Part shown: positions 8,157-55,481 of the stretch, in pieces
Layout: every line of letters starts with the position of its first letter
How positions within the stretch are numbered: the first letter of the stretch is position 1
From: Felis catus
Taxonomy: Eukaryota
DNA: 64,000 nt
Direction of reading: 5' to 3'
Assembly (NCBI RefSeq): GCF_018350175.1
Contig: NC_058368.1
Coordinates: forward strand, 32,676,001-32,740,000
Translations under genes and position numbers: made by a program
Notes under the pieces: generated by a model
The model's database searches: none
Seen by the model: only the letters and a program-made list of their open reading frames with translations
Told to the model about the DNA's origin: nothing

Positions 8157-8376
8157 CTTATTTTCCTCTTCTGTTACTCTACATATAAGGCAAATGGTCT
8201 AACTTAGTAAAAAACAACATAGTAATATATCCTAAATAAGCCGTGATAAGGAATGTGTTTATCTTGATCTTGATCTTGAATCTAAGTGATGTTGAGTGCC
8301 AGCCAAAATAACAAGTTGATAAGAAAGCACTGAATTTATTCTTATAGAGTAAAAGAAAGAATTGCTTTATCAGATT

Positions 8377-8592
8377 AAAAAAAAATAAGTTTATTTTTGA
8401 GAGAGAGAAAGAGAGAGAGAGACAGAGTGCGAGCGGCGGAGGGACAGAGAGAGGGAGACACAGAATCTGAAGCTGGCTCCAGGCTCTGAACTGTCAGCAC
8501 AGACCCCAAGGTGGGGGTCAAACTCAAGAACTGCAAGATCATGACCTGAGCTAAAGTTGGACACTTAACCGACCGAGCCACCCAGGTGCCCC
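8377..8592 (-). mobile_element. CAN-SINE
   Basis: SINE body; TSD tgctttat(c/a)agatt on both flanks. Confidence 0.95.
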
Positions 8593-8949
8593 TGCTTTAT
8601 AAGATTTTAATAGCATCTCAGAGAGAGGGAAAGTAAATTTGGTATTATGAGGTTTTGAAGTTTTCGACCCAGGTATTTGACTGTATAAGGGGTCATAATA
8701 TAGTGGTTTAGAACTGAGGAAAACATCGAAGTGAGGATTTTGTTTTGATGTCTTTAAAGAGTCCTGAAAAGAAAATAATTGTTGTTTGATGACATCGTTT
8801 GCAGAGTTGAACAGTTTGATGTTCATTTTAGGAGAAAAGAATAATTACCGAAAGGAATACCAAAATTACTTTCAACATTTTCCATCCTGGACACAACTTT
8901 ACTATATTAATAAAATTGTATTAGAGACAGTAGAAAACAATGCTGTATT

Positions 8950-9206
8950 TTTTATATAGTTGTTTTTTACTGTTTATTTTATTTAATTAATTAATTTATT
9001 TTTGAGAGAGAGAGAGAGTGAGAGAGAGATTGATTCAGAGTGTGAGCAGAGGAGGGACAGAGAGAGAAAGACGCAGAATCTGAAGTATGGTCCAGGCTCT
9101 GAGCTGTCAGCACAGAACCCTACATGGAGTTCAAACTCATGGACTGTGAGATCATGACCTGGGCTGAAGTTGGCTGCTTAACTGACTGAGCCACTCAGAC
9201 GCCCCT
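8950..9206 (-). mobile_element. CAN-SINE
   Basis: SINE body; TSD aacaatg(c/t)tgtatt at 8936-8949 and 9207-9220. Confidence 0.95.
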
Positions 9207-9459
9207 AACAATGTTGTATTAATGTAAATAGTAAAATCTTTGTTTTAGGGTGGTTTGAGGTCTCGTTGTCTTCCTTTGTGGTCATTTTTCAGCCTAAGCT
9301 AAATGATATATCATTAATATATAGGGGTATGATTAATCCAGATAATGACAACATGAGGTATCATACTCTCATTTCAAGTTTCCTGTTAATGGTTGTTTAA
9401 ACCTCTATATGTGCCAAACTTTCTTATTTATTTCTTATGTGTATTTATATTTATCTAGA

Positions 9460-9787
9460 TACATATATATATATATATAAAAATATATATGACTATATAT
9501 ATGCTACATATAAATATATATGATATATAACTATGTATATACTATATATACTGTATATAATATATATACAGTGTATATATTATATATATACATATATATA
9601 TGTATATAGTATATATACACTGTATATATTATATATACACTGTATATATTATATATACACTATATGACTATATAACTATATGTAGTTCTATTATTTATAT
9701 ATAATGTATATTTAATATATTTATATATAATATATATTTTATAATGGAATATATATGTATATGTATATATATGTGTGTATGTGCATA

Positions 9788-9836
<49 letters not shown>

Positions 9837-9840
9837 ATTC
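9460..9840. repeat. Complex (TA)n-rich tract with 20-bp tandem units
   Basis: atatatacactgtatatatt repeated at 9611-9661 within long TA runs. Confidence 0.95.
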
Positions 9841-9949
9841 TATTATAGTCCAGTACAGCAGTGAACATGTTGAAGATCACAAGTTGAAAATTTCAACATA
9901 GTCAACTGAGAGAAGGATCATCATCAGAATTTATAGTCTACTTCTCAGG

Positions 9950-11400
9950 TGCCACGGGTGTCTGAAATAAACCAGGAGAATAGAATAAAAATCCTGTAGA
10001 ATAACACCATAACACCAGATATGGTATTATTCACCAAATAATCTATTTTTTTCATTCTTTTTTTTGATTAGCAGGTCTTTTTGTAATAGTGAAAATCCTA
10101 GTGAACATTGCAGGAATATAAGCACAACATTCTGTTCCCCTGAAAGGCCAAAATTATATCTAAATTGATTTTCTTCTGAACCACTGCTTATCCAACTTCA
10201 TGAATCTCCCAGGTTCTATAGTCCGGTTGGCATTATCTAAATCTGATACTCTCTAATCCACAGCACCCGGGATCCTACTTTGTGGGTAAAGTGTGTAAGG
10301 AGAAAAGAAATCAATCAAAAATTTCCCTTGAATAATTAAGATGTTGGCTCTCAACTCAGAGCCCATTTTTTATTCTTCTTAAATTATTATCTATTATCTT
10401 TTTATCCAAGAGGGTAAACTGATGGTAACAATTGGACCCTGGTTGCCATGTCAGTAAATGTTTTTGTTTTTTTTTTTACTTCCAAATTTTAATTTAAATT
10501 GCATTTACTTAACATATAGTGTGATACTGGTTTCAGGAGTAGAATTTAGTGATTCACCACTTACACATAACATCCAGTGCTCATCATAACAAGTGCCCTC
10601 CTTAATACCAAACACGCATTTAGCTCATTCCCCACCCACCTCCCTCTATCAACCATGTCAGTAAATATCTTGAAAGAAGGAATTAGTTGAACAAGTTTGT
10701 ATTTAGTCAGCAGATGGCTTTTGTGTCACAAATATAACACCAGGCATAGAAAGTCATACAATGATCTGTTCAGGACCAAGATACTCCAGTAGGATTTCTG
10801 AACAGTGTAAACAGTGTTAAAGTGTTATGGCACAACTCCTTTAGAATTGTCCACTGCCAAGAAATTAACTTATAATGGTGAGATCGTTAGGTAGATCTAA
10901 AGCAAAAGAGAAGTTTGTCTTCCTTGTAAGATCTGTGAAGTTGAGAAACTCCAAATACACACCATCTGTTTCCTTTTTTTCTTCCAAGTTCTATTTCTTA
11001 ACAGTTCAATTAAAAACTAGTTCCCACATAAGGTCTTCAAGTCATATTTTATTGAAGAAAGTAATCTACTTTCCTATGAAAATTTGTCTTTTAGATGCTT
11101 AGACATTGAGATGTCTGTCCTGTTGTTGTGTTTGTCATCTATAAAAGTCACACGTAGGTTGAATCCAGTTAACCAGGAAATAAACTGACTCTTTACAAAT
11201 AACCAGTATTAAGAGAAGCTGAGTGGTTGTCAAAAAACTGTGTGTACAAATTCGACAGTTTATTGTTATGATTTAGCCAGTTCACCAGCCAACTGTAGTC
11301 AAGTATTGAACTCATAACAAAAAATGTATAAAGAAGTAACAATGTTAATAATAGAGACTTCCCTATAGTTAACAGAATTAAAAGTAGCCTTAAGCCAACC
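9950..11400 (-). pseudogene. env: ERV env remnant (SU CXXC, TM immunosuppressive-domain-like segment and CC motif)
   Basis: NCRICTH at ~11240-11260; AVVQKKINLDIILAFQG then, after a frameshift, GTECCAYIP at ~10110-10187. Confidence 0.75.
10460..10652 (-). mobile_element. Short L1 3'-end insertion inside env
   Basis: L1 3'UTR with T tail; perfect 14-bp TSD ccatgtcagtaaat at 10446-10459 and 10653-10666. Confidence 0.92.
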
Positions 11401-11436
11401 AAAAGGAAAAGAAGATTACTAGAAAAATGAAGAACC

Positions 11437-11633
11437 AGGGTGCCTACGTGGCTCAGTTGGTTAAGCATCTGACTCCTGGTTTTGGCTCATGTCATGATCT
11501 CATGATTTGTGAGATCGAGCTCCATATTAGTTCTGTGCTGTCAACACTTGTGGTTCTCCCTCTCTCCATCTCTCTCTGTCCCCGCCCCCCGCTCTCTCTC
11601 TCAAAAATAAATAAATATACATTAAAAAAAAAG
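11437..11633 (+). mobile_element. CAN-SINE
   Basis: SINE body; TSD aaaaatgaagaac on both flanks. Confidence 0.93.
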
Positions 11634-12191
11634 AAAAAATGAAGAACAAAAGAATGAAGATCAAAATGTAACAACTCTTGGTTTTGTTTTTGAATCTTCA
11701 GTGAAGACTATCTATACCTTATGTAGTTGATTTGGTCTGGGAAGTGTTGGGTGGAATCTGTCTCCTTACAGAGGTCATAGGCTTCTGGAGTTTCCCTAAT
11801 CATCCTCAACTTGAAGACTCCAGAAGGAATTGTCTTCTAGTGATTCAGGGATGTTATATGCCTCTTTAATTGGGAGATGTGGACCAGTTTCCAACAGATT
11901 CCAAGGCAGATCTCTAGGTTTTAATTAATGCAAAATTTCTTTTGAAAGAAAGTGAAGAAAGGCTCTCATAATTGTTGATGACAGCCCTGGGTGCATTGCT
12001 AAGTCACCTGTAATTCGAGCAATGTGTTTTTGCAATAATATGGTGTTTATAAATGGAGATGATACATCCAAACACATGTTGCTGCCTGTTACTATCACAT
12101 GAAGGGAGAATTGATGATACCCAGAAGGAGCTGATCTCATTGTCATTAATCGAGAGTAATACTTATTTTTTTTTAATTTTTTTAAATAATT

Positions 12192-12409
12192 AAAAAAATT
12201 TTTTAACATTTATTCATTTTTGAAAGGCAGAGAGAGACAGAGCGTGAATGGCGGAGGGGCAGAGAGAGAGGGAGACACAGAAACAGAAGCAGGCTCCAGG
12301 CTCTGAGCTGTCAGCACAGAGCCTGATGTGGGGCTTGAATTCACAGACCATGAGATCATGACCTGAGCAGAAGTTGGCCGCTTAACTGACTGAGCCACCC
12401 AGGCACCCC
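12192..12409 (-). mobile_element. CAN-SINE nested in the tail of another SINE
   Basis: TSD aattttt(t/a)aaataatt at ~12175-12191 and 12410-12426. Confidence 0.93.
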
Positions 12410-12446
12410 AATTTTTTAAAATAATTTTGAAAAATGTTTATTTACT

Positions 12447-12655
12447 GGGGTGCCTGAGTGGCTCAGTTGGTTAAGCGTTCAACTTTGGCTCAGGTCATGA
12501 TATTGCCGTTTATGAGTTCAACCCCTGAGTTGGGCTTTGTGCTAATGGCTCAGAGCGTGGAGCCTGCTTCAGATTCTGTGTCTCCCCCAGTCTCTGACCC
12601 TCCCATGCTCATGCTCTGTCTCTCTCTGTCTCTCAATAGCAAATAATCATTAAAA
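12447..12655 (+). mobile_element. CAN-SINE nested in the tail of another SINE
   Basis: Full SINE body on the plus strand. Confidence 0.93.
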
Positions 12656-12659
12656 ATTT

Positions 12660-12865
12660 TTAATTAATTAATTAATGTATTTATTTATGTGATTATTTTT
12701 GAGAGAGCGTAAGCAGGGGAGGGACAGAGAGAAGGGGACAGAAGATCAAAGTGGGCTCCATGTCGATAGCAACAAGCCCCACATGGGGCTCGAAACCATG
12801 AATCGCGACATCATGACCTGAGACAAAGTCAGACGATCAATTGACTGAGGCACCCAGGCACCACA
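12660..12865 (-). mobile_element. CAN-SINE (older outer copy of a triple nest)
   Basis: Diverged SINE body; gtaatactt flanks the whole cluster at ~12156-12164 and ~12874-12882. Confidence 0.88.
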
Positions 12866-13307
12866 GTCCAGTGGTAATACTTTAAATGCATTTAAGTTGG
12901 AGAATCTCCGAGAGTTTTGCTACTTTTCCTTTCATAATTACATTTGATATCTCTACTTTTCTCAAAATTGCAAAACTTTGTAAAATTTTTGATATATTTC
13001 AGTAAAATGGGTACATCTGTCACTAAAGGATGCTAGAGAGACAGAATGAGATTTCTTGGATTGGTCAAAGTACAGTCATTGTTACTTATGAAAAATTAAA
13101 TGAATGAAATTTATTTTTATAAAATTAAATCATACATATATATATATATATTTTCAAGTAATTATCACACTCTTAGGCAACAAGAAGGTTCAATCAATTC
13201 TGAGAGTAAGAAAACAATTGTAGACACATATACAATAGCCATTCAGGTGATAGTTATGTGGAAAAGAACTAATCAGGGGGTTGCTGAGGTTTGGGCTTTT
13301 GAACCTT

Positions 13308-13547
13308 TAAAAAATTTTTTTTAATGTTTTTATTTTATTTCTGAGAGAGTGAAAGAAACATAGAGAGACAGAATGTGAACAGGGGAAGACAGACAGACAG
13401 ACAGACAGACAGACACACACACACACACACACAAAATCTGAAGCAGGCTCAGGGTCTGGGCTGTCAGCACAGACCCTGAAGCAAGGCTTGAACTCATAAA
13501 CTGTGAGATAAAGACCTGAGCCTAAGTCAGACACTTAACCGACTGAG
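13308..13547 (-). mobile_element. CAN-SINE, 5'-truncated, with (GACA)n(CA)n
   Basis: TSD gggct(t/c)ttgaacctt on both flanks. Confidence 0.92.
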
Positions 13548-14771
13548 GGCTCTTGAACCTTGTACTCACCTTTAGAGTTTTACCAAAATTATGCTGGTGA
13601 CTGATGAGACAAACACTATAGACACCCTCAGAAATTTTAGTGATGTTCCCCCCAGTGTTGATTGAATACAGTAGTCTTGTGGTAGGCAATTTCATGTGTA
13701 GTTGCATGCTTTCATTTGTGGTACCCCAGTGCTCCTGAGCAGCCATCTTTGAAGATTATTCTCATGTAGCCTGCATTCATATTTTTCCCAGTACCTTTGT
13801 TTCTGACTCTGGTGCAATGACTCTGGTACAATAGCCTTTTGAAGCTTTTAAAGGATTTTTCTCCTTGGGTATGTAACCAGGATGTTAGTGAATGCAGTCT
13901 GTCTAGCAAAATGAACATCATGGGCATTTTCTCTAGTTTTTAGGTTATTCCCTTAATTCTACCTTTTAGTGAATCATGAGGGCGCACAAAAGTTCTTTAA
14001 TGGATTGGCTACTCGTAGATATGGTCAAAAACCCTCTCTTCTTTTTAAAGCATTCCAAAATTATGGTCAATTCCCAAAAACTTATTGTATACATTACATT
14101 AATTCTCCTATCTCCAGCTAACTGACAAGCTGTGGTGAGAACATTGATTTCTACTTTCTGCGTAGACTTTGCCTCAGACAGGAAGTCATATTCTTGGGGT
14201 AAAGTCAAATCTATTGGGGACACAGGGTGTTTTTCTGTTTTGGTCTCAAGATATAACCAAGTCTTAATATAATCAACCAAATTAAGTCTGTATATTATAA
14301 AGGGTTTTCCAATAAATCTCCCTGAAATATAGCTCATGAATAAGAGGTTAGACAATTATGATTTTCCCTTCTCTATGTAATGAAATAAAAGTGGCAGGAT
14401 TAAAAACATTACAGTGATGAATAGAAAATAATAGAATTTCATAGAAGTAAGCCTGTTTGCTAAGAAATGTGTATTTTTATTGAGCAACCATTATAAAACA
14501 CGAGGGATCATCAAGTGTAAAGGAGATGCTAAAATAAAATTGGAGGAAGCGTTTGCTTAATTATCTGTCATGACTATTACCTGTAGACAAAGTGGATAGG
14601 CTTTGGCAGGGAGTCAAGAAGGAGTCTATAGTTACCTACTTGTCTGTGGTCATTCTCAAAACATTAATCAAGAATGCTGAGGGCTTGTCCATAACTCTGA
14701 CATAATGAATAAGTAGAAAGGTTCATGGTAATTAAGTAAGCCTACATCAGATGTTGAAGAGCTAATTTCAT

Positions 14772-14776
14772 ACACA

Positions 14777-14816
<40 letters not shown>
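14772..14816. repeat. (CA)n microsatellite
   Basis: Seen directly. Confidence 0.95.
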
Positions 14817-14818
<2 letters not shown>

Positions 14819-14934
14819 TATGTCACTTCTTAGGTTTTCAGGGAAGAGTCTCCCTTGCCATAAATTTGGTTAAGTCATATAGTGTTTTGGTGATTTCAGA
14901 AAAGTTAAGGCCTATTACCTGTAGAAGTCAATAA

Positions 14935-15002
14935 GTCTATCTTGAAAGTGTCTGATCCTGGAAACTAAGCAGGGTTGGACCTGGTTAGTACTTTGATGGG
15001 AG
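14935..15002 (+). pseudogene. RNA5S: 3'-truncated (tailless) 5S rRNA retropseudogene
   Basis: gtctgatcctggaaactaagcagggttggacctggttagtactttgatgggag matches 5S GTCTGATCTCGGAAGCTAAGCAGGGTCGGGCCTGGTTAGTACTTGGATGGGAG; starts gtcta; TSD agtcaataa at 14926-14934 and 15004-15012. Confidence 0.9.
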
Positions 15003-16247
15003 GAGTCAATAAAATCCAGGAATTCCTTTATCTTTTTCTTTTTTTAATTGATCTGGGATAGTTTGAATGGTTGTAGTGACTCAGGAATAAGAGATCTATC
15101 TCCTTGGAATAAATCATACTCTTGGGGGGTAAACTTTATTTAAGAAAACATTTAAATACTCTTTGGAAATCTTTTGCCCTTTCTAAACTGTAATAGTAAG
15201 TAGATATATACAATCAATCTTAGAATTTTCCTTATCTTTAAAACACACAAAAATAGTCATACACATATTGAATAAGAGTAGAATCACAAGGAAATGTAAT
15301 GTTTCCTTAAGGTCTTAGTTGAGGACTTGTGAAAAGCAGTAAAGTTCCTTACTAAATCCTTGGGATATTACAGTCCAGGTATTTTTTGCTTTTTGCTTTT
15401 TTTTTTTTTCCAGGAGAAGGCAATTATTGCCTATATTGATCTAATTCTAGAGGGACACTAAAGAAAGCAGCACACAGATCAACAACTGCAAAATATGCAG
15501 AATCAGGAGGTACTGAAGGTAAAACAAATCTCAACTCTATAATACAGTGAAAAACTAAGACTATTATATTTATTTATAGCTCTCAGTTCCTAACTAAACA
15601 GAGATCCTTGCTTACTGGTTTTGATAGGGAGGATAGGAGTACTCTAAGATCTAGTAAAGGTAGGTTGAGTTCTCCATTATTTGGATTTTGACTGTTGGTT
15701 TTAGTCTCCTTTTACCTTCTGGTTTGAGAGCTAATTTTGTTAGGTTGGCCAGAGGTTTACATGGGTCAATAGGAACATAAATGGATTCAGCACCCAAAAT
15801 CCAACCCCCAAAAAAGTAAACTTTTTTCCCCCTCTCAAGTGGTCAGCACCTCCTTGAAGTCCTCAGTTTGGACTTAGTTTAGGCACAAGGGTATTGGCAA
15901 GTCAGTGACCAAAATAGCTATTATCTCATTATGAAAAGGGATAGCCTCAGGAATTTCAAGATCACAAGGAGAGCATTTACACTGGTAATTCCACCTGCCA
16001 GGTAAAAGTCTCATAATTAGGTTGGTGGGTGTAGGGCCAAAAGGAAAGAAGAACGTTTCTTGTTTATAACGATGAGATAACAGGTTGGGACTAGAACACA
16101 GGGAATGTCTGAGGATTATGTTTATCAGAGATACCCACAATCTAAGAGCTTACTGAGTCTGAGAGAGAGAGAGATTATGTAACACTGTTTGGGTTTAAGG
16201 TGATAATGTAGTGCCTCTATCAGTGAAACTTTTTCAAAACTGCCTTT

Positions 16248-19200
16248 AAAAAAAAAAAACAAAGGAATTTTTGTTTTTACTTTTATTTTATAGCCTTGTT
16301 GAGATACGTTTCACATACCATTAAATTCACATATTTAGGGTAAACAGTTCAGTGGTTTTTGTGAATTCACAGGAAAAAAAATACATATCACCAAAATCTA
16401 ATTCTAGAACAGTTTTTCAACACCCCCCACCAAAAAACAAAAAACAAAATAAAAAACAAAAAACCTTGTACATATTAGATGCCATTCCAAATTCCCACCT
16501 CTTTCCTACCCAGCACCAGGAACTAGGATCTATTTTTAGTTTCAATGGATTTTCCTATTCTAGATGTTTTATATAAATGAAATGATGTAATATGTGGCCT
16601 TTAAACTGTCTTCTTTGACTTAACATAATACTTGAAGCTTTATCCATGTTGTGGTGTGGTGTATATAAACCCTTTTTTTCATTTCCAGCCGATATTCCGT
16701 TGTATCAATATACTACATTTAAAAAAATCCATTCATCAGTTGTTGAGCACTTAGGTTGTTTCCACTTTTTTTAGCTGTTATGAATAATGCTGTGTGCTTT
16801 TGCACGTACAAAAAAACTTGTACATGTGCAGGTTTTTACCTGGATATGTTTTTGTTTCTTTTGGATATAAATCTAAGAGTAGAATTGCTGGGTCATTTGT
16901 AACTGTATTCAAGATGTTGGGGAACTGAAAAACTGTTTTCTGACACACTGACAAAGTGTCTGTACCAATTTTGCATTCACACTAGGAACTTACATGATGG
17001 TTCCAAATTCTCCACATTCTTACCAACATTTGTTCTTTACTGTCATCTTTTTTAGCCACCTAGTGGGTGTAAAGTGACATCTCATTGTGGTTTTGATTTG
17101 CATTTCTCTGATAATTATGTTGAGCAACTGTTCATGTGTTTATTGGCCATTTGTATATTTTTCTTTGGGGAAATGTCTTCAAATCACTTGCTCATATTTT
17201 AATTGGATTTTTTATCTATTGTTAAGTTGTAAGAGTCCTTTATATATTCTGTAGAAAAATATCTTGTTAAGTATATGATTTGCAAATATATTCTAATACG
17301 TGAGTTGTCTTTTTACTTTCTTGATAATGTCTTTTAAAACACTTTTTTTTTAATTTTGATGAAGTCCAGTCTGTGTATTATTTCTTTGCTTGTGTTTTGG
17401 TGTCATACCTAAGAAATTACTGCCTAAGTTTGTAAAGTTCACAAAGTGTTACTTCTGTGTTTTATTTTAGAAGTTTTATTCTTTTAGCTATTACATTAAA
17501 GTAAATGATCCATTTTGAGGTATCTTTGTGTGTCATGTGAGAACAGGGTCTAAATTCAGTGTTTTGCCTATGGATATGTATTTGATTCAACCTAATTTCT
17601 TGAAAAGACAATTATTTCCTTATTAAATTATCTTGGCACCCTTGTTGAAAATCAGCTGACTGTATATCTAGGGTTTACTGCTGGATTCTCAATTGTAATT
17701 TGTTGATCTATAGGTCTACGTGTAAGAATGCATTGTCTTAGTTACTGAAACTTTTTAGTTTATTTTGAAACCAAGAAGGATGAATCATCTAAATTTGTTC
17801 TTTTTAAGAGTGTTTTGACTATTCTAGGTGCTTTGCATTTCCATATGAATTTTAGGTATAGCTTGCCATTTTGCTAAAAATAAAAAAAAATAGCTGGGAT
17901 TTAATAGGAATAGTGTTGAATCTGTACATCAATTTGGGTAGTATTATCCTCTTAACAGTGTTCATTCATTCAGTTCATGGACATGAACTCTTTCATTTAT
18001 TTAGATCTTTTTAAGTTTCTTTCAATGATTTATAGTTTTCAGTGTACCAATCTTACATATTTTTGTTAAATTTATTCTTCATATTTTAATCTTGTAGATG
18101 TTATTATAAGTAAAATTGCTTTCTTAGTTTGACTTTTGGATTTTTTTTATTGTTAGTAGATAGAAATGCAGTAAAGTTTGTATTAATCTTGTATCCTGTC
18201 ACATTGCTAAATTTGTTTATTAGTTCTAATAATTATGGTATGATCATTATGGTGTTCAGTATATAAGATCATGTCATCTGTGAATAGGGATAATTTACTT
18301 CTTCCTTTCCAATATGGATGCTTTCTAATTCTGTTTTTGCCTAATTTCCCTACCTGAAACTTCCATGTTATTGTTGAATATAGGTGGCAAGATAGGATAC
18401 ATCCTTGTTTGGTTCCTGATTTTAGGTGTAAATCATTTAATCTTTCACCATTAAGCTTGAGGCTAGTTATAGGTTATTTGTAGATGTTTTGTCAGGTTGA
18501 GATGGTTCCCTTTTATTCCCAGTCTGTTTTTTTTGTTGTTGTTGTTGTTAATCATTAAAAGGTGTTGGATTTTTGTGAAATGATTTTGCTGTGTCTGTTG
18601 AGATGATTATGTCTTTTTTAAATCCTTTATCCTATAAATATGGTATATTACACTGATTTTTGGATGGTAAATGACTCTCTCCTGTCTAGGAGAAATACCA
18701 CTTGGTCATGGTGTATATCCCATTTTAATTGTTGTTGGGTTAAGTTTGTAATTTGTTGATGATTTTATGTCTATGTTCTTAAGGGATGTTGCCCTACTGT
18801 CCTTAAGGGATGTGGTTTTCTTGTGATGGATTTTCTACTCTTGGTATCACCATAGTAATGACTTCATATAATGAGCTGGGAAGTGTTCACTCCTCTTCTA
18901 TATTTTGAAAGAAATTGTGATATTAATTCTCTAAATGAGAATTAATCAATTTCATTGATTTTACCATTGAAGCCATCTGGTGCTTGATTTTGTTGAATTT
19001 TTTTAAAATTATTAGTTCAATATTTTTACTTTGTATAAATCTGTTTAGATTATCTATGTTTTCTGGGTTCAGTTTTGGTAGTTTGTGACTATCTAGCAAT
19101 TTGGCCACTGCACCCAAGTTATCTAATCTGTTAACACACAATTGTTCATAGTGTTATTTTATAATCCTGTTTTAAAATTTCTCTAAGAACAGTAATAATG

Positions 19201-20335
19201 TTCCCTCTTCCATTCTCAATTTTAGTAATTTGAGTCTTTTCTCTTTTTTCATGGCCCATTGAATTACATGTTTTCATTTCAGTTTTCAACCTTTTTACTT
19301 TTTTAAATGTTTGTTTATTTTGAGAGACAGAGAGTGCCTATGCACTTGTGCGAGGTGGGGAGGGGCAGAGAGAGAAAGAGAGGGAGAGAGAGAGAGAATC
19401 CCAAGCATGCTCCATGCTGTCAGTGCAGAGTCCCGCTTGGGCTCAATCTCACAAACCGTGAGATCATTACCTGAGCCAAAATCAAAAGTCAGATGCTTAA
19501 CTGACTAAGCCAATCAGGTGCCCCAGTTTTGACCTTTTCAAATATATGATTTTTATTTCATTGATTCTTCTTACTGCTTTCTATTTTAATAATTTAAATT
19601 TTAATCTTTATTTTTATGCTTTAGATTTAACTTTTTGTTCATTTTCTAATTTTTGTGGTAGAAGGTTGATTAATGACTTTATATCTTTCTTCTTTCAGTA
19701 TAGATATTTACAATTATAAATTCCTCTGTAAGCACTGCTTTTGCTGCATCCCATAAAATTTGGTATGTTGTAGTTTTATTTTCTTTCAAGTCAAAGTACT
19801 TTTTCAATTTCTCTTGTTATTTCTTCTTTTACCATTAGTTACTTAGGAGAATGTTTTTCATTCCATGTATTTGGGAATTCTCAAAGTTACTCCTGTTGAT
19901 GTTTTACTTAATTTTATTGTGATCAGAACACATAATAAATATGTTAATGTTTCAATTTTCCGAGGCTCCTTTTATGGTAGAGATTTTCCTATGGGCTATA
20001 AGTTAAGATAAATTTATTGACTGTATTCAGATTATAATGCTTTTAACAGACCATCAGAAAAGGTGTGCTCTCTCTGTTGTTTGCAGTGCTACTGGTCTTT
20101 GGTATCACATCAATGAGCTGAGGAGGTGGGAGATAAGGAAATAGTTCCAAGTTAAACATCTCCAAACCTACTGTTTTGGTTTAGTGATTTTTATTGGATA
20201 GATGATTTTCAACTCATTCTGTGGCTTTGATTAATGGCCAGAGTTCTGATATGGTTGATTTTAGTTGTCTTCCCCATATATTTGTTCTTATAACAAGTTC
20301 ACTAAGGTACTACCTAATCTGTTCTGAAAGTCATT
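16248..20335 (-). mobile_element. Old LINE-1 (L1MB/L1M-like) inserted between ERV gag and pro
   Basis: L1 3'UTR from ~16280; ORF2 remnant LDSHKLPKLNPENIDNLNR (ORF 18923-19141); possible 5'-end sequence at ~20050-20335. Confidence 0.9.
19290..19524 (-). mobile_element. CAN-SINE nested in L1
   Basis: SINE body flanked by agtttt(c)(a/g)accttt. Confidence 0.92.
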
Positions 20336-20399
20336 TTCTTAAGGTTGTCTTTGAATATTTTGAGAAAATTCTCTTTTTGAGGTTAAGAGAACAATAGGA

Positions 20400-21800
20400 A
20401 ATTGGTGCTTAATTTTTTAGTAACAACTTCACTAATCACTAACTTATTTTATTTTCTTGGCTAACACAGGAAACTTTAAAAAAAAATTTTTTTCTCCTGT
20501 ATACAGTATCTAGAGACCCTGTTTAAATAAACAAGGGTAGAAATTTTTATTTTGATTTTTGTTTGTTTTAATTTTTTTTAATGTTTATTAATTTTTGAGA
20601 GAGAGAGAGAGCACCACTGGGGGAGGTGCAGAGAGGGGGCGGGGACAAGATCCAAAGCAGGCTCTGTGCCAGCAGCAGAAAGGCTGGTGTTGTTCTCGAA
20701 CTCACGAACAGTGAGATCATGACCTGAGCCAAAGTTAGGTGCTCAACCAACTGAGCCATCCAGGTGTCCGTTGTTTGTTTTATTCTTATCTGTAATACCA
20801 TCAATTTATCAGAGTTATAGTCTGCTTTGGTTCTAAGATTCTGAAAAGTTTCAGCAAAGTATTGGAGGTTTGCCTGTGGGGTAATTTCTGATTCTAGTTT
20901 TTATTGCATATTAAGTTTCCCACTTTTGACATAATATTAATAAAACTTGAGGAAAGAGCTAAGATTACATATATTTTAGGTTTTACTTTTGAATGTTGTC
21001 TATTTAAAAGTGTTAAAGAACTATTGCTAAAGTCCCAATGATTCAACCTTTGATTGCTTAGAGGACTAAATCGTGACAAAGCTATTTCACAGGAAAGATT
21101 TTGAAGACAGACTTCAAAATATCTTGTCCAACATCTACAGTTTTATCCAAACACTTCTTAATTCCTATTCAGTTTAGAGTCTTGTTAAGTCACCCTTGGA
21201 ATCTCCCCATTCTTCATTTTCCATACAAGGTTTTGCAACTGAGATTTCCACTAACACAAATTAGTTGGTATATGTCTAGAAGCCCTGGATTATATATTCT
21301 TTTAATCAATATATGTTCTTCTGCAGATTTCTTTCTATCTTTTCAAAGTCTTTGATGATGGCTGTCAATTAAGTAAAACACCGAGTCTTACATGGTCCTT
21401 CTTTGTTTTGAGAGTTATTTTACTTTAAGAAGTAGTTGAGATTTTGGGCTTTGGCAGGCCTAGGGGAAAAGAGAGGGGTGCAGTTAGAATTAGGTGCAGA
21501 AGGAAATGAAGAAGCAAAGAGTGAGGGAAGTTATTAGTTAGATAAAGCATTTAGATTCTAGTTATGATGTAGAGGATCTAAAAGAAAGATAGTTTTAAGT
21601 TTTTTATTGTATATATATATATATGTTTCAGAATTTTTCTCAGCTTGGCCAAGGAATAGATTTAGGAAGCAATTTTTGGATCGAATTTTTTGGAGAATGA
21701 GTTTTATGCAAATAAAAATAGACAATATTTTTGGTATGATGTCCCCCCCATCTTTTCATTTTGAACTCAAATATTCAAAGACTTACAGCTAAAACAAACA
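20400..21800 (-). pseudogene. gag: ERV gag remnant
   Basis: LTAIIKDF...SAEEHILIKRIYNPGLLDIYQL (~21260-21370), IFPVK...SSKQSKVES (~21040-21100), Pro/Ser-rich segment ~21450-21530. Confidence 0.65.
20568..20769 (-). mobile_element. CAN-SINE inside gag remnant
   Basis: SINE body flanked by ttgtttgtttt. Confidence 0.92.
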
Positions 21801-22046
21801 AACAAACAGAACAGTCTTTGATGTTGTTTACCAAAATTTGAGTGGTTTCATAAACATTTAAATGTTTTCTTTTTCCCAAATCGAAAAATACAGTTATTTA
21901 CAATTTGAATATTCTATTAAAGTGTTTTCAGGAATAATAAATTCATGTTGATAAATACAAATAAATAGTAAAGTTGTGTTAAAGTACACAGAGAGTTAAC
22001 TGTGTGAGTGTAAATCATTTCAGGTTTTGGTAGAAATGTCCAGTAG

Positions 22047-22118
22047 ACAGTTAAACATATAAGTAGATGCAATTTCTTGCCAACAGTTAAACATATAACT
22101 AGATGCAATTTCTTACCA
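22047..22118. repeat. 36-bp tandem duplication
   Basis: acagttaaacatataa(g/c)tagatgcaatttctt(g/a)cca twice, 2 mismatches. Confidence 0.95.
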
Positions 22119-23236
22119 ATTATTTTTTTTCATAAAAATTAAACAGAAGAGATGACTAGATATTTTATGAAAAATATTGTAGATAGCTTTGTTTTGTTCT
22201 GTAACTATTATCAGATGTATACTATATTTATATAATTTTCAGATGCATACTATATATAATTTTCAATTAATAAATATGAGATATAAATGTTTATTATGAT
22301 AAATGCTACTGTACTCATTCTGACCGTGCATGAGCCACTTATAAAATATATTGTTAACTTTCAGTGTTATTTTGCAAGGCAGTTGATTAAGCATAAAGTT
22401 AAGTGTGGTGTGAACAGGGTAATGGAGAGATAAAAGGTAAGGTCCTGTTGTATGATGGCATTGTAAACATGAGCTCTTTTGAAGATTGCCACTTTTTGTT
22501 GCTGACTGAACCTAATCACATGGCTGATTGCATGAATTTCTAAAAGCTAGAGGCTACACATGTCTGCATGAACTGTAGGAAACCATGCTCTATATATTTA
22601 GTTATCAAATGAAATACATTGATATTATAAAGGACTAAACATATTTTATACTTTCCAACACCATTCTAAGTGTCCATGTCTGTAAAACGTAGATAAATAA
22701 TGTCCACATAAGAGGATCTTCGTATTTAAGTCACTTAGGGTAATATCCACCATTGTTAGTTTCTTAGCTTATACCTTTATCATTGTCCAAATGAAAGTGA
22801 TTCTAAATTGACCCCAGCTTACATGACTATTAAATTCTTGGTTCTCATGGAACTTCTTAAGATGGCGAGTCAATTTCTCATGTCTTCACACGTTCATTGA
22901 CTATACTTTACTCTTAGTTAATCTTGGATATTAATGTATAGTTGACATTCATTCATCTAATTTGAGACTCTAAGAATATTTGATATAAACCTAAAGAAAG
23001 ACCAAATTCAGTGATTTCCTTTAACAGTTATTGTTGGTCTCCAATCTCTGCCTGTGGGAAACTGTGCTGTGTCATGTAGTGTCCTTGTTCCATAGTCTTT
23101 TTTTTTAATGGACCCTGGAAACAAAGTTGGGCTAGTTTAATTCTCTAGCATCAATTTGTATATGTTCTTCACTCAATCTCTCTCTCTCTGTCTGTCGTTA
23201 TTAGTAGTAGTTGTAGTGTTACCATCATCAGCAACA

Positions 23237-25212: not shown

Positions 25213-25424
25213 GGGGCGCCTGGGTGGCGCAGTCGGTTAAGCGTCCGACTTCAGCCAGGTCACGATCTCATGGTCCGTGAGTTCGAGCCTCGCGTCAGGC
25301 TCTGGGCTGATGGCTCAGAGCCTGGAGCCTGTTTCCGATTCTGTGTCTCCCTCTCTCTCTGCCCCTCCCCCGTTCATGCTCTGTCTCTCTCTGTCCCAAA
25401 AATAAATAAACGTTGAAAAAAAAA
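25213..25424 (+). mobile_element. Young feline CAN-SINE (SINEC_Fc-like)
   Basis: CpG-rich ggggcgcctgggtggcgcagtcggttaagcgtccgacttcagccaggtcacg, pure A tail; TSD aagaataata at 25203-25212 and 25425-25434. Confidence 0.97.
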
Positions 25425-30792: not shown

Positions 30793-30962
30793 AGGTGTGC
30801 GTGGGTGGCTCAGTCCATTGAGCATTTGACTTTGGCTCAGGTCATGGTCTCATGGTTCAGTTTGTGCGTTCCAGACCTACACTGGGCTTGCTACTGTCAA
30901 CGCAGAGCCTGCCTAGTATCTTCTGTCCCCCTATCTGTCTGCCCCTCCCCTCTGTCTCTCCT
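30793..30962 (+). mobile_element. Degraded CAN-SINE without a clear tail
   Basis: gggtggctcagtc...gactttggctcaggtcatg body. Confidence 0.85.
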
Positions 30963-33742: not shown

Positions 33743-33934
33743 GGGGTGCCTGGCTGGCTCAGTCGGTTAAGCATCTGACTTCGGCTCAGGTCATGATCTC
33801 ACAGTCTGTGAGTTCGAGCCCCGCGTCGGGCTCTGTGTTGACACCTCAGAGCCGGGAGCCTGCTTCCGATTCTGTGTCTCCCTCTCTCTCTGCCCCTCTC
33901 CTGTTCATGCTCTTTCTCTGTGTCAAAAATAAAT
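33743..33934 (+). mobile_element. CAN-SINE
   Basis: TSD aaaattaattccct at 33725-33738 and 33935-33948. Confidence 0.95.
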
Positions 33935-35150: not shown

Positions 35151-35692
35151 TGTAGTTGCTCCTCTTTAAGATGACTCCAGACACTTCCCCCCACTGCGCC
35201 CCCTGGCATGTATGTGCCTTTTTGCCAGTGAGAAGTGGTATTTGTGAAAAGATTTCTTCCTTCTACTTAAATCAGGATTTCCTTAGTGACTTGATTGGCC
35301 AGTAAAATGCACTGAGGTGATAGTTCAAACTGCTAAAGGTTGGTGATATTAAGCCTTGCCACTTTTGCTCAGATTCATTGAAGTGCTTTTAGAACACTGA
35401 AATAATTGACTTGGGGCATTGGCCACCTTCTAAGAAGACCAAATACCCAGAAACAGTTATACTATGATAAGCCCAAAGCAAATAGAATCTGAAGGAGAAA
35501 TATCATATGGAGAGAAAGAGGCGAGGGGCAGAGACTCACTAAGGAACACTCAGGAGTCAGACAGGTGAATGAAGAAGCCAATTTGGCAGTGGATTCTCCA
35601 ACATAAGCTCACCTCAGCTGATGCTATTTGATTTAGAAATGAACAGCCCAGTTTTGAGGAATTTGTTATGTAGGAACAGATAACTAGATAAG
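35151..35692 (+). mobile_element. MLT1-like solo LTR inserted into the ERV-L integrase remnant
   Basis: Starts tgtagttgct..., contains ccttagtgacttgattggccagtaaaatg, ends tttgttatgtaggaacagataactagata; integrase peptide resumes on both sides. Confidence 0.75.
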
Positions 35693-36084
35693 TGATAGAT
35701 AAGGAAGTTCAATCCAAATATAGTATCTCTTCTCATGAGAACATATTTCTAGTCCTTCCCTGAAGGAAAAAGTTCAGTATAATCAAGCTGCCAACAAATG
35801 GCTTGTCCACTCAGGTATATAGCACCACATCAGGTGCTTGGGTTGCTCCTTGCCACTGAGCACTGAGAAGCAGTAGTGGCTAGATTGGCCTGACCTAGAG
35901 AATCCATGTTTTTGACCCCATGCATAGTCTCCATTGTTGCCATTTTACTTTGTTTATGGGTATACCAAACAAGCTGGGAGTTAAGGGTGACTGACATCAC
36001 CTTTACACTCAATCAGTGAGCATGTCCATAATGGAGATCTATGCAAGGGATTCCATGGGACAAAGATTTTCTTAAAGATCAAGC

Positions 36085-36302: not shown

Positions 36303-37330
36303 TGAGCCTATGTTTAATAGTTATCCCTCAAAACATTGTTCAAGTCTCCTTCTCTCCAGTCTTCTAACCTTTTTTCTTCTAAGTCCCAGTTCAAAATCAT
36401 TAATTACTTCCTATACATTAATATAGATCCTTATCTCAAGATCCTGATAGTATAGATCCTTCTTTATTTCCAGAAAAATTAGCAATATTATGCTCAGATT
36501 TATGTTTTCCTCATTTACAGATCTTGAATTGAATTGAACCATAGCAACAATCTCCTTCCAAATGGTTTCAGTATGTCATTAAGAGTTGTTTGTGAACCAG
36601 ATTCTAGTTTGTTTGTTTGTTTAGAGTCAACTGGTCATAGGCAATTACCCTTGAAATCATATGTGGGAGACTAAGGATGCAACTTAAGTTCTATCACTAG
36701 ACCAAGATCTGTTTTTCAAAAGAAGAACATTATAAAGAGGGAATATCTTGGCTCCAAAGCTAGTGGACTCCATTGTAAGCCTATTAGCAGGGATTTCTGC
36801 ATCTTTACAGTATCCCTATCCATCGTAGACATTTTGATATTCAGAAAATTTTGATATTTGATATTTAATTGTTGATATTTAAGTACTGAATAGCAATGCT
36901 GCTTTTTTATAGGTTTGCCCAAACCAGCTGGGAAACCTTGCACTGAAAGCCACCCAAAGCTATGAATCTCTTATGTCATTTAAGGAATAAATGAGAACAT
37001 CAGAATGCTTAGCATTCAAAAATGAAGCAAAGTCACCTATATTACAACTTTATTAGTAGTTGAGGGTGTAAGATGCAGAATAGTTCTTCACTTTGGAGGG
37101 GATATGTAATATTTCTCTGGCAAATAACCAGAAAATTTGTTAGGGTAGCAGGTCATGGGTGTTGTCTTGGACCTCTAGCATGCATCTATCTTGTCAAATC
37201 ATTTAGGAACAGCTCTACAGATTCATATAGTATTATTTAACTTAAATAATCATTTATAGTAATGTTTTGTGTAATTTTTATATGACAAGGATACCTTGAA
37301 TTTATAATGGTTTAAAGCCAATAAATTTTA

Positions 37331-37749
37331 TGCCAATACCTTGCTGTCTTGATGATGACAGCTTTGTAGTAGAGGCTAAAGTCTGGGATTGTGATGCCTC
37401 CTGCTTTGGTCTTCTTCTTCAAAATTCCTTTGGCTATTCGGGGCCTTTTGTGGTTCCATATGAATTTTAGGATTGCTTGTTCTAGTTTCAAGAAGAATGC
37501 TGGTGCAATTTTGATTGGGATTGCATTGAATGTGTAGATAGCTTTGGGTAGTATTGACATTTTGACAATATTTATTTTTCCAATCCATGAGCAGGGAATG
37601 AGACTCTTAAAAACTGAGAACAAACTGAGGGTTGATGGGGGGTGGGAGGGAGGAGAGGGTGGGTGATGGGTATTGAGGAGGGCACCTTTTGGGATGAGCA
37701 CTGGGTGTTGTATGGAAACCAATTTGTCAATAAATTTCATATAAAAAAA
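37331..37749 (+). mobile_element. Feline L1 with 5' inversion and large internal deletion
   Basis: Inverted ORF2 piece 37331-~37598 joined to 3'UTR and A tail; perfect 18-bp TSD taaagccaataaatttta at 37313-37330 and 37750-37767. Confidence 0.95.
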
Positions 37750-55276: not shown

Positions 55277-55481
55277 AATTTTTTAAACGTTTTTATTAAT
55301 TTTTGAGAGACAGAGCATGAGCGGAGGAGGGGAGGAGAGAGAGGGAGACACAGAATCTGAAGCAGGCCCCAGGTTCTGAGCTGTCATCACAGAACCTGAG
55401 GTGGGGCTTGAACTCACGGACCACGAGATCCTGACCTGAGCTGAAGTCGGACGCTTAACCGACTGAGCCACCCAAGCACAC
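55277..55481 (-). mobile_element. CAN-SINE
   Basis: TSD cctcatat(g/a)ttgtattt on both flanks. Confidence 0.95.

Follow-up and report, generated by a model that had tools for sequence, protein, structure and literature searches.

The question raised by this locus is whether the retrovirus-like peptides scattered over a 64,000-nucleotide stretch of the Felis catus genome (~33% G+C; "the window" below means this whole stretch) are the remains of one provirus and, if so, of which lineage and of what age. A sequence-only reading had proposed a class I provirus with gag, pro, pol and env genes, and had quoted seven peptides from it. Each of the seven occurs once, letter for letter, on the minus strand, and they follow the gag-pro-pol order: YNPGLLDIYQL in Gag (21262-21294), DRGTTLS (16201-16221) and PTNLIMR (16009-16029) in the protease, VVDLCAAFFSVP (15451-15486) and TWTVISQGF (15354-15380) in the reverse transcriptase (RT), LIQYVYD, a decayed YVDD (15256-15276), and NFSEITKTLYDLTK (14865-14906). 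Motifs of RNase H (14175-14023), integrase (13698-11864) and Env (11260-10118) come next in order. The element is real, and that reading of it was largely correct. We interpret it as a single class I provirus of an epsilon-like group (HEPSI/MER4-group) which has decayed neutrally (probability roughly 0.85), and it is virtually certain that it is a class I provirus of some kind.

Anatomy of the provirus and its colinear copies

The provirus extends over approximately 8295-22120 (13,826 bases) on the minus strand, with the layout LTR-gag-pro-pol-env-LTR and with remnants of both long terminal repeats (LTRs). The extent first proposed, 9900..21800, omitted both LTR remnants, and although the four genes can be called near-complete, the 5′ end cannot. 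Proviral sequence accounts for 7,182 of the 13,826 bases, the remainder being a 4.1-kb old L1, one L1 fragment, nine copies of short interspersed elements (SINEs) and microsatellites. Outside these insertions, pro-pol measures ~3.5 kb, which is near full length, and env ~1.36 kb.

The gag remnant (20336..21780, minus strand) runs from matrix to nucleocapsid with many stops and frame changes, its last ~60 bases entering the start of the protease, and it matches four related copies with nhmmer E values of 1e-53 to 1e-40. The junction of gag and pro, where class I elements keep the frame through a stop that is read through, is decayed here and interrupted by the L1. One remnant of a nucleocapsid zinc finger lies near 20494-20508, and a clearer partial finger was seen in copy L058. 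The protease remnant (15930..16250, minus strand, 3′ boundary approximate), with its active-site motif decayed at 16213-16221, is homologous to stretches of copies L035 and L039, which reached z 13 and z 7 against a protein bearing Pfam RVP. It is followed by the RT remnant (14820..15930, minus strand), in which the catalytic YxDD is decayed, and, after an AC microsatellite (14772-14816), by the connection and RNase H remnant (13900..14770, minus strand), whose homologous stretch in copy L060 matches Pfam RNase_H (E 2.6e-7). The integrase remnant (11820..13700, minus strand) is split by a SINE and by a three-SINE cluster and shows DNA homology to L037 and L043, as does the env remnant (9850..11425, minus strand; E 2.5e-20 and 2.8e-23, respectively). 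Within env we identified a CXXC candidate, CRIC (11246-11257), a stretch resembling the immunosuppressive domain (ISD; 10137-10175) and a CC motif (10118-10138), all on the minus strand; of the previously claimed Env CXXC/CC pair, the CC is present and CRIC is a candidate for the CXXC, but the first Cys of CX6CC was not seen in that frame.

The stretches between insertions were scored separately against intact proteins, with frame changes allowed and with shuffle controls. The RT stretch (15643-15015) scored 230 against a turtle endogenous retrovirus (ERV) Pol, where 20 shuffles reached at most 47 (z 44.5). For connection-RNase H (14733-14023) the score was 178, with a shuffle maximum of 46 (z 39.7), and the opposite strand stayed at 32-34 in the same test. 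The Env transmembrane subunit (TM) was compared with every second one of 119 Env proteins, 60 in all; the maximum was 54 and the mean 40.0, neither value was reached by any of 30 shuffles, and the top 15 alignments all fell on 10234-10055, the stretch with the ISD and CC.

Other searches weigh against this interpretation. The window's own gag, protease, integrase and surface subunit had no clear significance alone against intact proteins, a word-seeded search of a protein collection with the RT stretch gave 0 of 71 candidates, PDB sequence searches gave no matches, and a search of metagenomes with RNase H returned nothing. A second metagenome scan and a viral scan with a fish-type Pol also returned nothing, while whole-library phmmer matched only 6 short open reading frames (ORFs) and the RVT_1 family search found L1 only, which then provided the reference for the L1 comparisons. 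With the window TM as query, no relative turned up in the genome, nested repeats dominated the results of two DNA searches with env, and the env stretches of the copies were not significant, the TM of L043 and of L035 failing to beat shuffles. Pfam reported nothing relevant for 27 single-frame translations of the window, a test that is insensitive here since it missed the L1 ORF2 too; of 22 further translations, one was relevant (RNase_H in L060), and neither a dUTPase nor a G-patch was shown in this insensitive scan. On the other hand, the homologous stretches of the copies do score: gag of L038 reached z 9.7 against a salamander Gag-Pro-Pol, the protease of L035 z 13.2, and the integrases of L037 and L043 z 48 and z 22 against intact integrases. 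The gag, protease and integrase of the window are thus established by DNA homology to colinear copies that score.

These copies come from ten related loci fetched after genome searches, nine of which belong to the family; L059 is gamma-like and was used as a control. Counts of copies are lower bounds, only the best candidates having been scored. Copy L037/L038 is colinear with the window from gag to the start of env, L043 over the region between the end of gag and the 3′ LTR, env included, and all nine loci match in the same order, which bears out the proposal of a class I provirus with colinear genes. One sequence precedes gag in L036, L038 and L041 and follows env in L035, L037 and L043, and this recurrence at both ends of the family identifies it as the LTR. 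The 3′ end of this LTR in L036, L041 and L043 seems to resemble the MER34-type LTR end. A large internal deletion in L035 joins the connection region to the end of env (L035:6580-6906).

The 5′ LTR remnant of the window (21810..22120, minus strand, 5′ edge uncertain) represents the middle part of the LTR. It shares 63-73% identity with LTR stretches from six copies, a level that none of 300 shuffles reached in any of these comparisons, and nhmmer matched it to the LTR at the 3′ end of L037 and to those at the 5′ ends of L036 and L038. After it, a deletion of ~1 kb relative to L036 and L041 has removed the LTR end with U5, the primer-binding site and the leader. At its upstream edge lies a 36-base tandem duplication (22047-22119, 94% match). 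The 3′ LTR remnant (8295..9440, minus strand, outer edges approximate) is split by SINEs at ~8970-9208 and 8375-8600, and a TA microsatellite (9442..9838, strandless) occupies the interval between it and env. Its part 9211-9428 matches the 3′ LTRs of L035, L037 and L043, 8700-8939 matches the 5′ LTR of L041 (E 4.6e-7), and the last 70 bases match weakly (11 of 300 shuffles).

Unfortunately, the window's two LTRs are only 57-61% alike, which is not above shuffles (243 and 49 of 300); direct 5′-3′ LTR dating therefore fails and was rejected, and the common origin of both LTRs is unproven, a further point against a single provirus. The locus might instead be a mosaic of two or more related elements, for example a solo-LTR fragment beside a 5′-truncated provirus: the 5′ LTR remnant is closer to other loci than to its own 3′ LTR, it abuts gag with the leader gone, and a host target-site duplication was looked for around the provirus and not found. 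However, single copies are colinear with the window over gag to env and the 3′ LTR, the 5′ LTR remnant has the right orientation and position, and if decay is star-like, the two LTRs of one provirus should differ about as much as any pair of copies do, so that we consider a mosaic highly improbable.

Placement of the lineage

With the RNase H of copy L060 as query, a reference search yielded 24 proteins; 19 of them name an organism, which is an eagle in one case and a turtle, fish or amphibian in the other 18. The eight highest-scoring Pols on connection-RNase H, from turtle, fish, salamander and others, reached 113-178, compared with 56-89 for gammaretroviral Pols. The best intact match is the Pol of a turtle ERV, P0015 (Terrapene, LOC113409400), which has a reptile host and is 35% identical in RT over 203 codons. 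The RT tree comprised 28 rows; L039, with an RT split by insertions, and L061, with an RT unmatched in the fetched stretch, were left out. In this tree, the window and seven copies formed a starred clade (100/99), sister to P0015 at 94/94, just below the starred level. A second starred clade (100/98) holds the gammaretroviruses, the eagle ERV and the control fossil L059, which was aligned in the same way, and excludes the window. The element lies outside the gammaretroviruses, beside turtle, fish and frog ERVs, in agreement with the epsilon-like motif style that the sequence-only reading had noticed.

Among human ERVs, the HEPSI group, which clusters with walleye dermal sarcoma virus (WDSV), takes in HEPSI1-4, MER34, MER4, MER65, MER89, PRIMA4 and HERV24 (PMC4724089). 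By eye, the Gag motif of the window is like that of HEPSI1 and HEPSI3 (Y[ND]PG..D.YQ type), and the N-terminus of its RT is like the Pol of HEPSI1 and MER89 (G[AV]E[SP]I type; PMC4724089 List S3). An A-rich bias of >31% is reported for HEPSI2 and HEPSI3 (PMC4724089); the element has 33.8% A and 32.4% T, in AT-rich host DNA after CpG decay. It probably belongs to the epsilon-like HEPSI group.

Several observations count against this placement. Of the 24 proteins from the reference search, 8 were no better than gammaretroviral Pols on connection-RNase H, and the RT scores overlap (101-138 for gamma, 93-153 for fish and frog, with one partial salmon protein at 56), only the turtle standing out. 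The wider epsilon-side branch with fish and frog ERVs is weak (75/97), and the tree was built without WDSV, which was not recovered from the viral collection searched, and without HERV-FRD/MER50/HUERS-P, class II or class III. A copy of the family served as query for the non-mammalian references, which favours them, P0015 guided the alignment of the fossil rows, and decayed rows can attract each other. In the window, the HEPSI ISD pattern (LnNRiaLDyLLA type, PMC4724089) fits best at the expected spot, 10175, with 8 mismatches, which is at chance level (163 window positions).

Thus, a class I provirus of another supergroup (HERVFRD-like, MER50-like, HUERS-P or HERV-H/F-like) has to be weighed, as those groups are absent from the tree. 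It would also suit the confusion of the MER4-group classification by recombination reported by Vargiu et al. (PMC4724089), and the MER34 Gag given there, which shares no motifs by eye with the Gag of the window, although this comparison, with one chain and its first 400 residues, is a weak test. We nevertheless find it decidedly unlikely, since the window is excluded from the clade of gammaretroviruses, eagle ERV and L059, turtle, fish and amphibians supply the closest named intact proteins, and the Gag and RT motifs are like those of HEPSI1, HEPSI3 and MER89. Of the MER4/MER34 relationship put forward from the motifs, the epsilon-like placement is supported, but the name MER34 does not follow, as the sole MER34 Gag of Vargiu et al. 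looks unlike; MER34, MER21, MER89 and a CarERV4-like element are all candidates for the exact family.

The HEPSI-type ISD pattern with at most one mismatch occurs at 36 places genome-wide, compared with 0 in the control, and these represent at least two DNA sequence types. The cat genome therefore holds a sizeable pool of epsilon-like env remnants.

Nested insertions, decay and age

At the protease start, an old L1 (16250..20335, minus strand) comprises a presumed 5′ part, ORF2 residues ~212-1256 and the 3′ untranslated region, its ORF2 showing 27-37% protein identity to intact L1 ORF2. We take its 3′ end to be L1MB-type. That this L1 is nested inside the provirus, as had been claimed, is seen from the empty site in L037, L041 and L043, three of the four copies aligned there, with ~15-20 bases of decayed overlap; in the fourth copy, the match ends at the site. 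An exact target duplication of this L1 was not found, only the decayed overlap. A SINE (19290-19525) lies within the L1, and the order of events was thus provirus, then L1, then SINE.

The other insertions are a SINE in gag (20560..20784, minus strand, 14-base target duplication), which we take to be of CanSINE type, a SINE in the integrase (13308-13547), three SINEs clustered at one site, also in the integrase (12165-12874), a SINE in the pol/env interval (11430..11655, plus strand) and a 3′ fragment of L1 in env (~10460-10655, 16-base target duplication). Most of these later insertions, SINEs and L1 fragment alike, have target duplications of 10-16 bases in gag, integrase, env and the 3′ LTR. 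Two SINEs of the cluster at 12165-12874 are inverted 35 bases apart, with 216-base arms that are 77% complementary; a single 10-base target duplication belongs to the cluster as a whole.

In the history that we propose, the virus would have entered the germ line by infection or reinfection, as the family carries env, and the provirus would be one of at least ten related copies from one ancient burst, later fixed. The long L1 would then have entered the protease start, followed by the SINEs (one of them in the L1) and the L1 fragment; a deletion of ~1 kb would have taken the end of the 5′ LTR, the primer site and the leader, and decay would have been neutral since fixation. The stretch was found at a word share of 1.00 in 20 of 24 listed DNA runs from 10 studies (14 may be the source), and the insertion therefore appears fixed.

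The provirus is dead, and its protein-coding capacity is nil. RT carries 7 frame changes and 3 stops in 203 aligned codons and connection-RNase H 7 frame changes and 6 stops in 233, which brings Pol to ~14 frame changes and 9 stops in 436 aligned codons. The YxDD motif, decayed in the window, is retained in two of the five other copies read. CpG observed/expected is 0.12. The longest stop-free runs are 129 codons in pol (13966-14355) and 76 in env, and with this maximum and an L1 fragment inside env, there is no full-length open env frame of the HEMO or syncytin kind. Only two frames of at least 140 codons exist in the window, both outside the element and over L1 remnants.

Perhaps a part was co-opted by the host, as a HEMO- or syncytin-like protein or as an LTR enhancer, given that HEMO, a MER34-family env, is kept open in the cat (PMC12704712) and that the RNase H stretch keeps short open frames in several genomes. 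Such a role is extremely improbable in view of the short stop-free runs, of the position of the only long frames outside the element and of the breaks in both LTRs. Most likely, judging from this sequence evidence, the provirus is without any function.

Kimura two-parameter (K2P) distances between the window copy and the others are 0.34-0.39 in RT and 0.38-0.44 in gag and are star-like; overall, the copies differ by 0.29-0.44 substitutions per site. With a neutral rate of 1.5-2.2 x 10^-9 per year, half of these distances would correspond to roughly 80-145 million years (My), which is an upper limit because the parent viruses may already have differed. Six database ORFs showed 94, 77, 75, 58, 57 and 48% identity to the window copy and scored 158-405 at the window, compared with at most 106 on the nine other loci. 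The top three (196-405 at the window, at most 100 elsewhere) probably come from the same locus in other species, while the lower three could reflect being found with this query. L1MB insertions map to the boreoeutherian and placental ancestors (PMC1395351), and MER34 is reported as inserting in the laurasiatherian ancestor (PMC1395351) and about 100 My ago (PMC12704712).

The same provirus could be younger, namely carnivore- or feliform-specific, and look old owing to divergent parent viruses and fast-changing AT-rich DNA. Inter-copy distances give only the upper limit of its age, no orthologue from a named non-carnivore was seen, the ORFs at 48-58% were picked with this very query and could be other copies in other species, and Repbase holds a Carnivora-named relative, CarERV4 (PMC4724089 supplement 2). 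However, the L1 that was inserted later has itself a best identity of only 67-73% to other L1 copies, compared with 84-88% for the env L1 fragment and its kin, and the window's own two LTRs are no longer recognisably alike. Moreover, a comparable felid element is 80% identical in dog and 71-75% in other orders (PMC4373062 Table 1), and the copies here stand at 67-73%. We thus regard the younger age as unlikely. Insertion before crown Carnivora, which had been raised as a possibility, appears likely from the divergence and the database ORFs, albeit with no named orthologue.

If the locus were common to placental orders and older than an insertion of L1MB age, which we hold to be rather unlikely, it would be among the oldest datable four-gene mammalian proviruses, at ~100 My or more. 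Its env-bearing epsilon-like family would then be one covered in pieces by the libraries, and its nearness to a turtle ERV would hint at a Cretaceous reptile-mammal exchange.

Known relatives, neighbouring features and significance

Epsilon-like ERVs have been described in humans (PMC4724089, PMC5753468) and in felids (PMC4373062). The human HEPSI elements (ERV1) resemble the window element in class I layout, non-gamma Pol, high age and heavy damage (PMC4724089 and the Repbase table in PMC5753468); MER21 is counted among them as well. They were defined in human, with an LTR divergence of 13-31%, whereas the present element is a felid locus with an LTR pair beyond reliable alignment. MER34/MER21/MER39-type LTR elements are the family of the HEMO env (PMC12704712), which is open, whereas the env of the window is closed. 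The CarERV4-like felid element LwiJO7007 (PMC4373062) has an epsilon-like RT, is 67% identical to CarERV4-int and has relatives at 71-75% in four placental orders, so it is of the same age class and lineage type as the window element; it is a 641-base pro-RT fragment from wild cats, whereas four genes and LTR remnants are mapped here. No paper on this locus was found in a literature search that was not by coordinate and misses most subscription journals.

Elsewhere in the window, a separate retroviral integrase remnant (35586-35994, minus strand) scored 72 against a gamma-type Pol, the best of 15 shuffles reaching 53; its motif style suggests to us class III / ERV-L, presumably. A young L1 ORF2 piece (37327-37599) is 97% identical to an intact copy at the protein level, and on the opposite strand 37382-37522 matches weakly. 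ARAGORN called four tRNAs (25218-25302, 30798-30884, 33748-33833 and 55392-55477), at least three of which overlap SINE heads, and these are probably not tRNA genes. The window also contains tRNA-derived SINEs, and there are intact gammaretroviral loci in the cat genome; both are marks of a genome of the cat family.

The element is a fossil of a known epsilon-like ERV1 group and a near-full-length, four-gene copy of it in the cat lineage. It points to no new mechanism, nor is there any hint of a function in the host. Scans based on ORFs or Pfam miss fossils of this kind. The nested L1 and SINE layers could be used as presence/absence markers, and the value of the locus is mainly that of a clean dated fossil, which shows that near-full-length, four-gene epsilon-like copies were left in the cat lineage.

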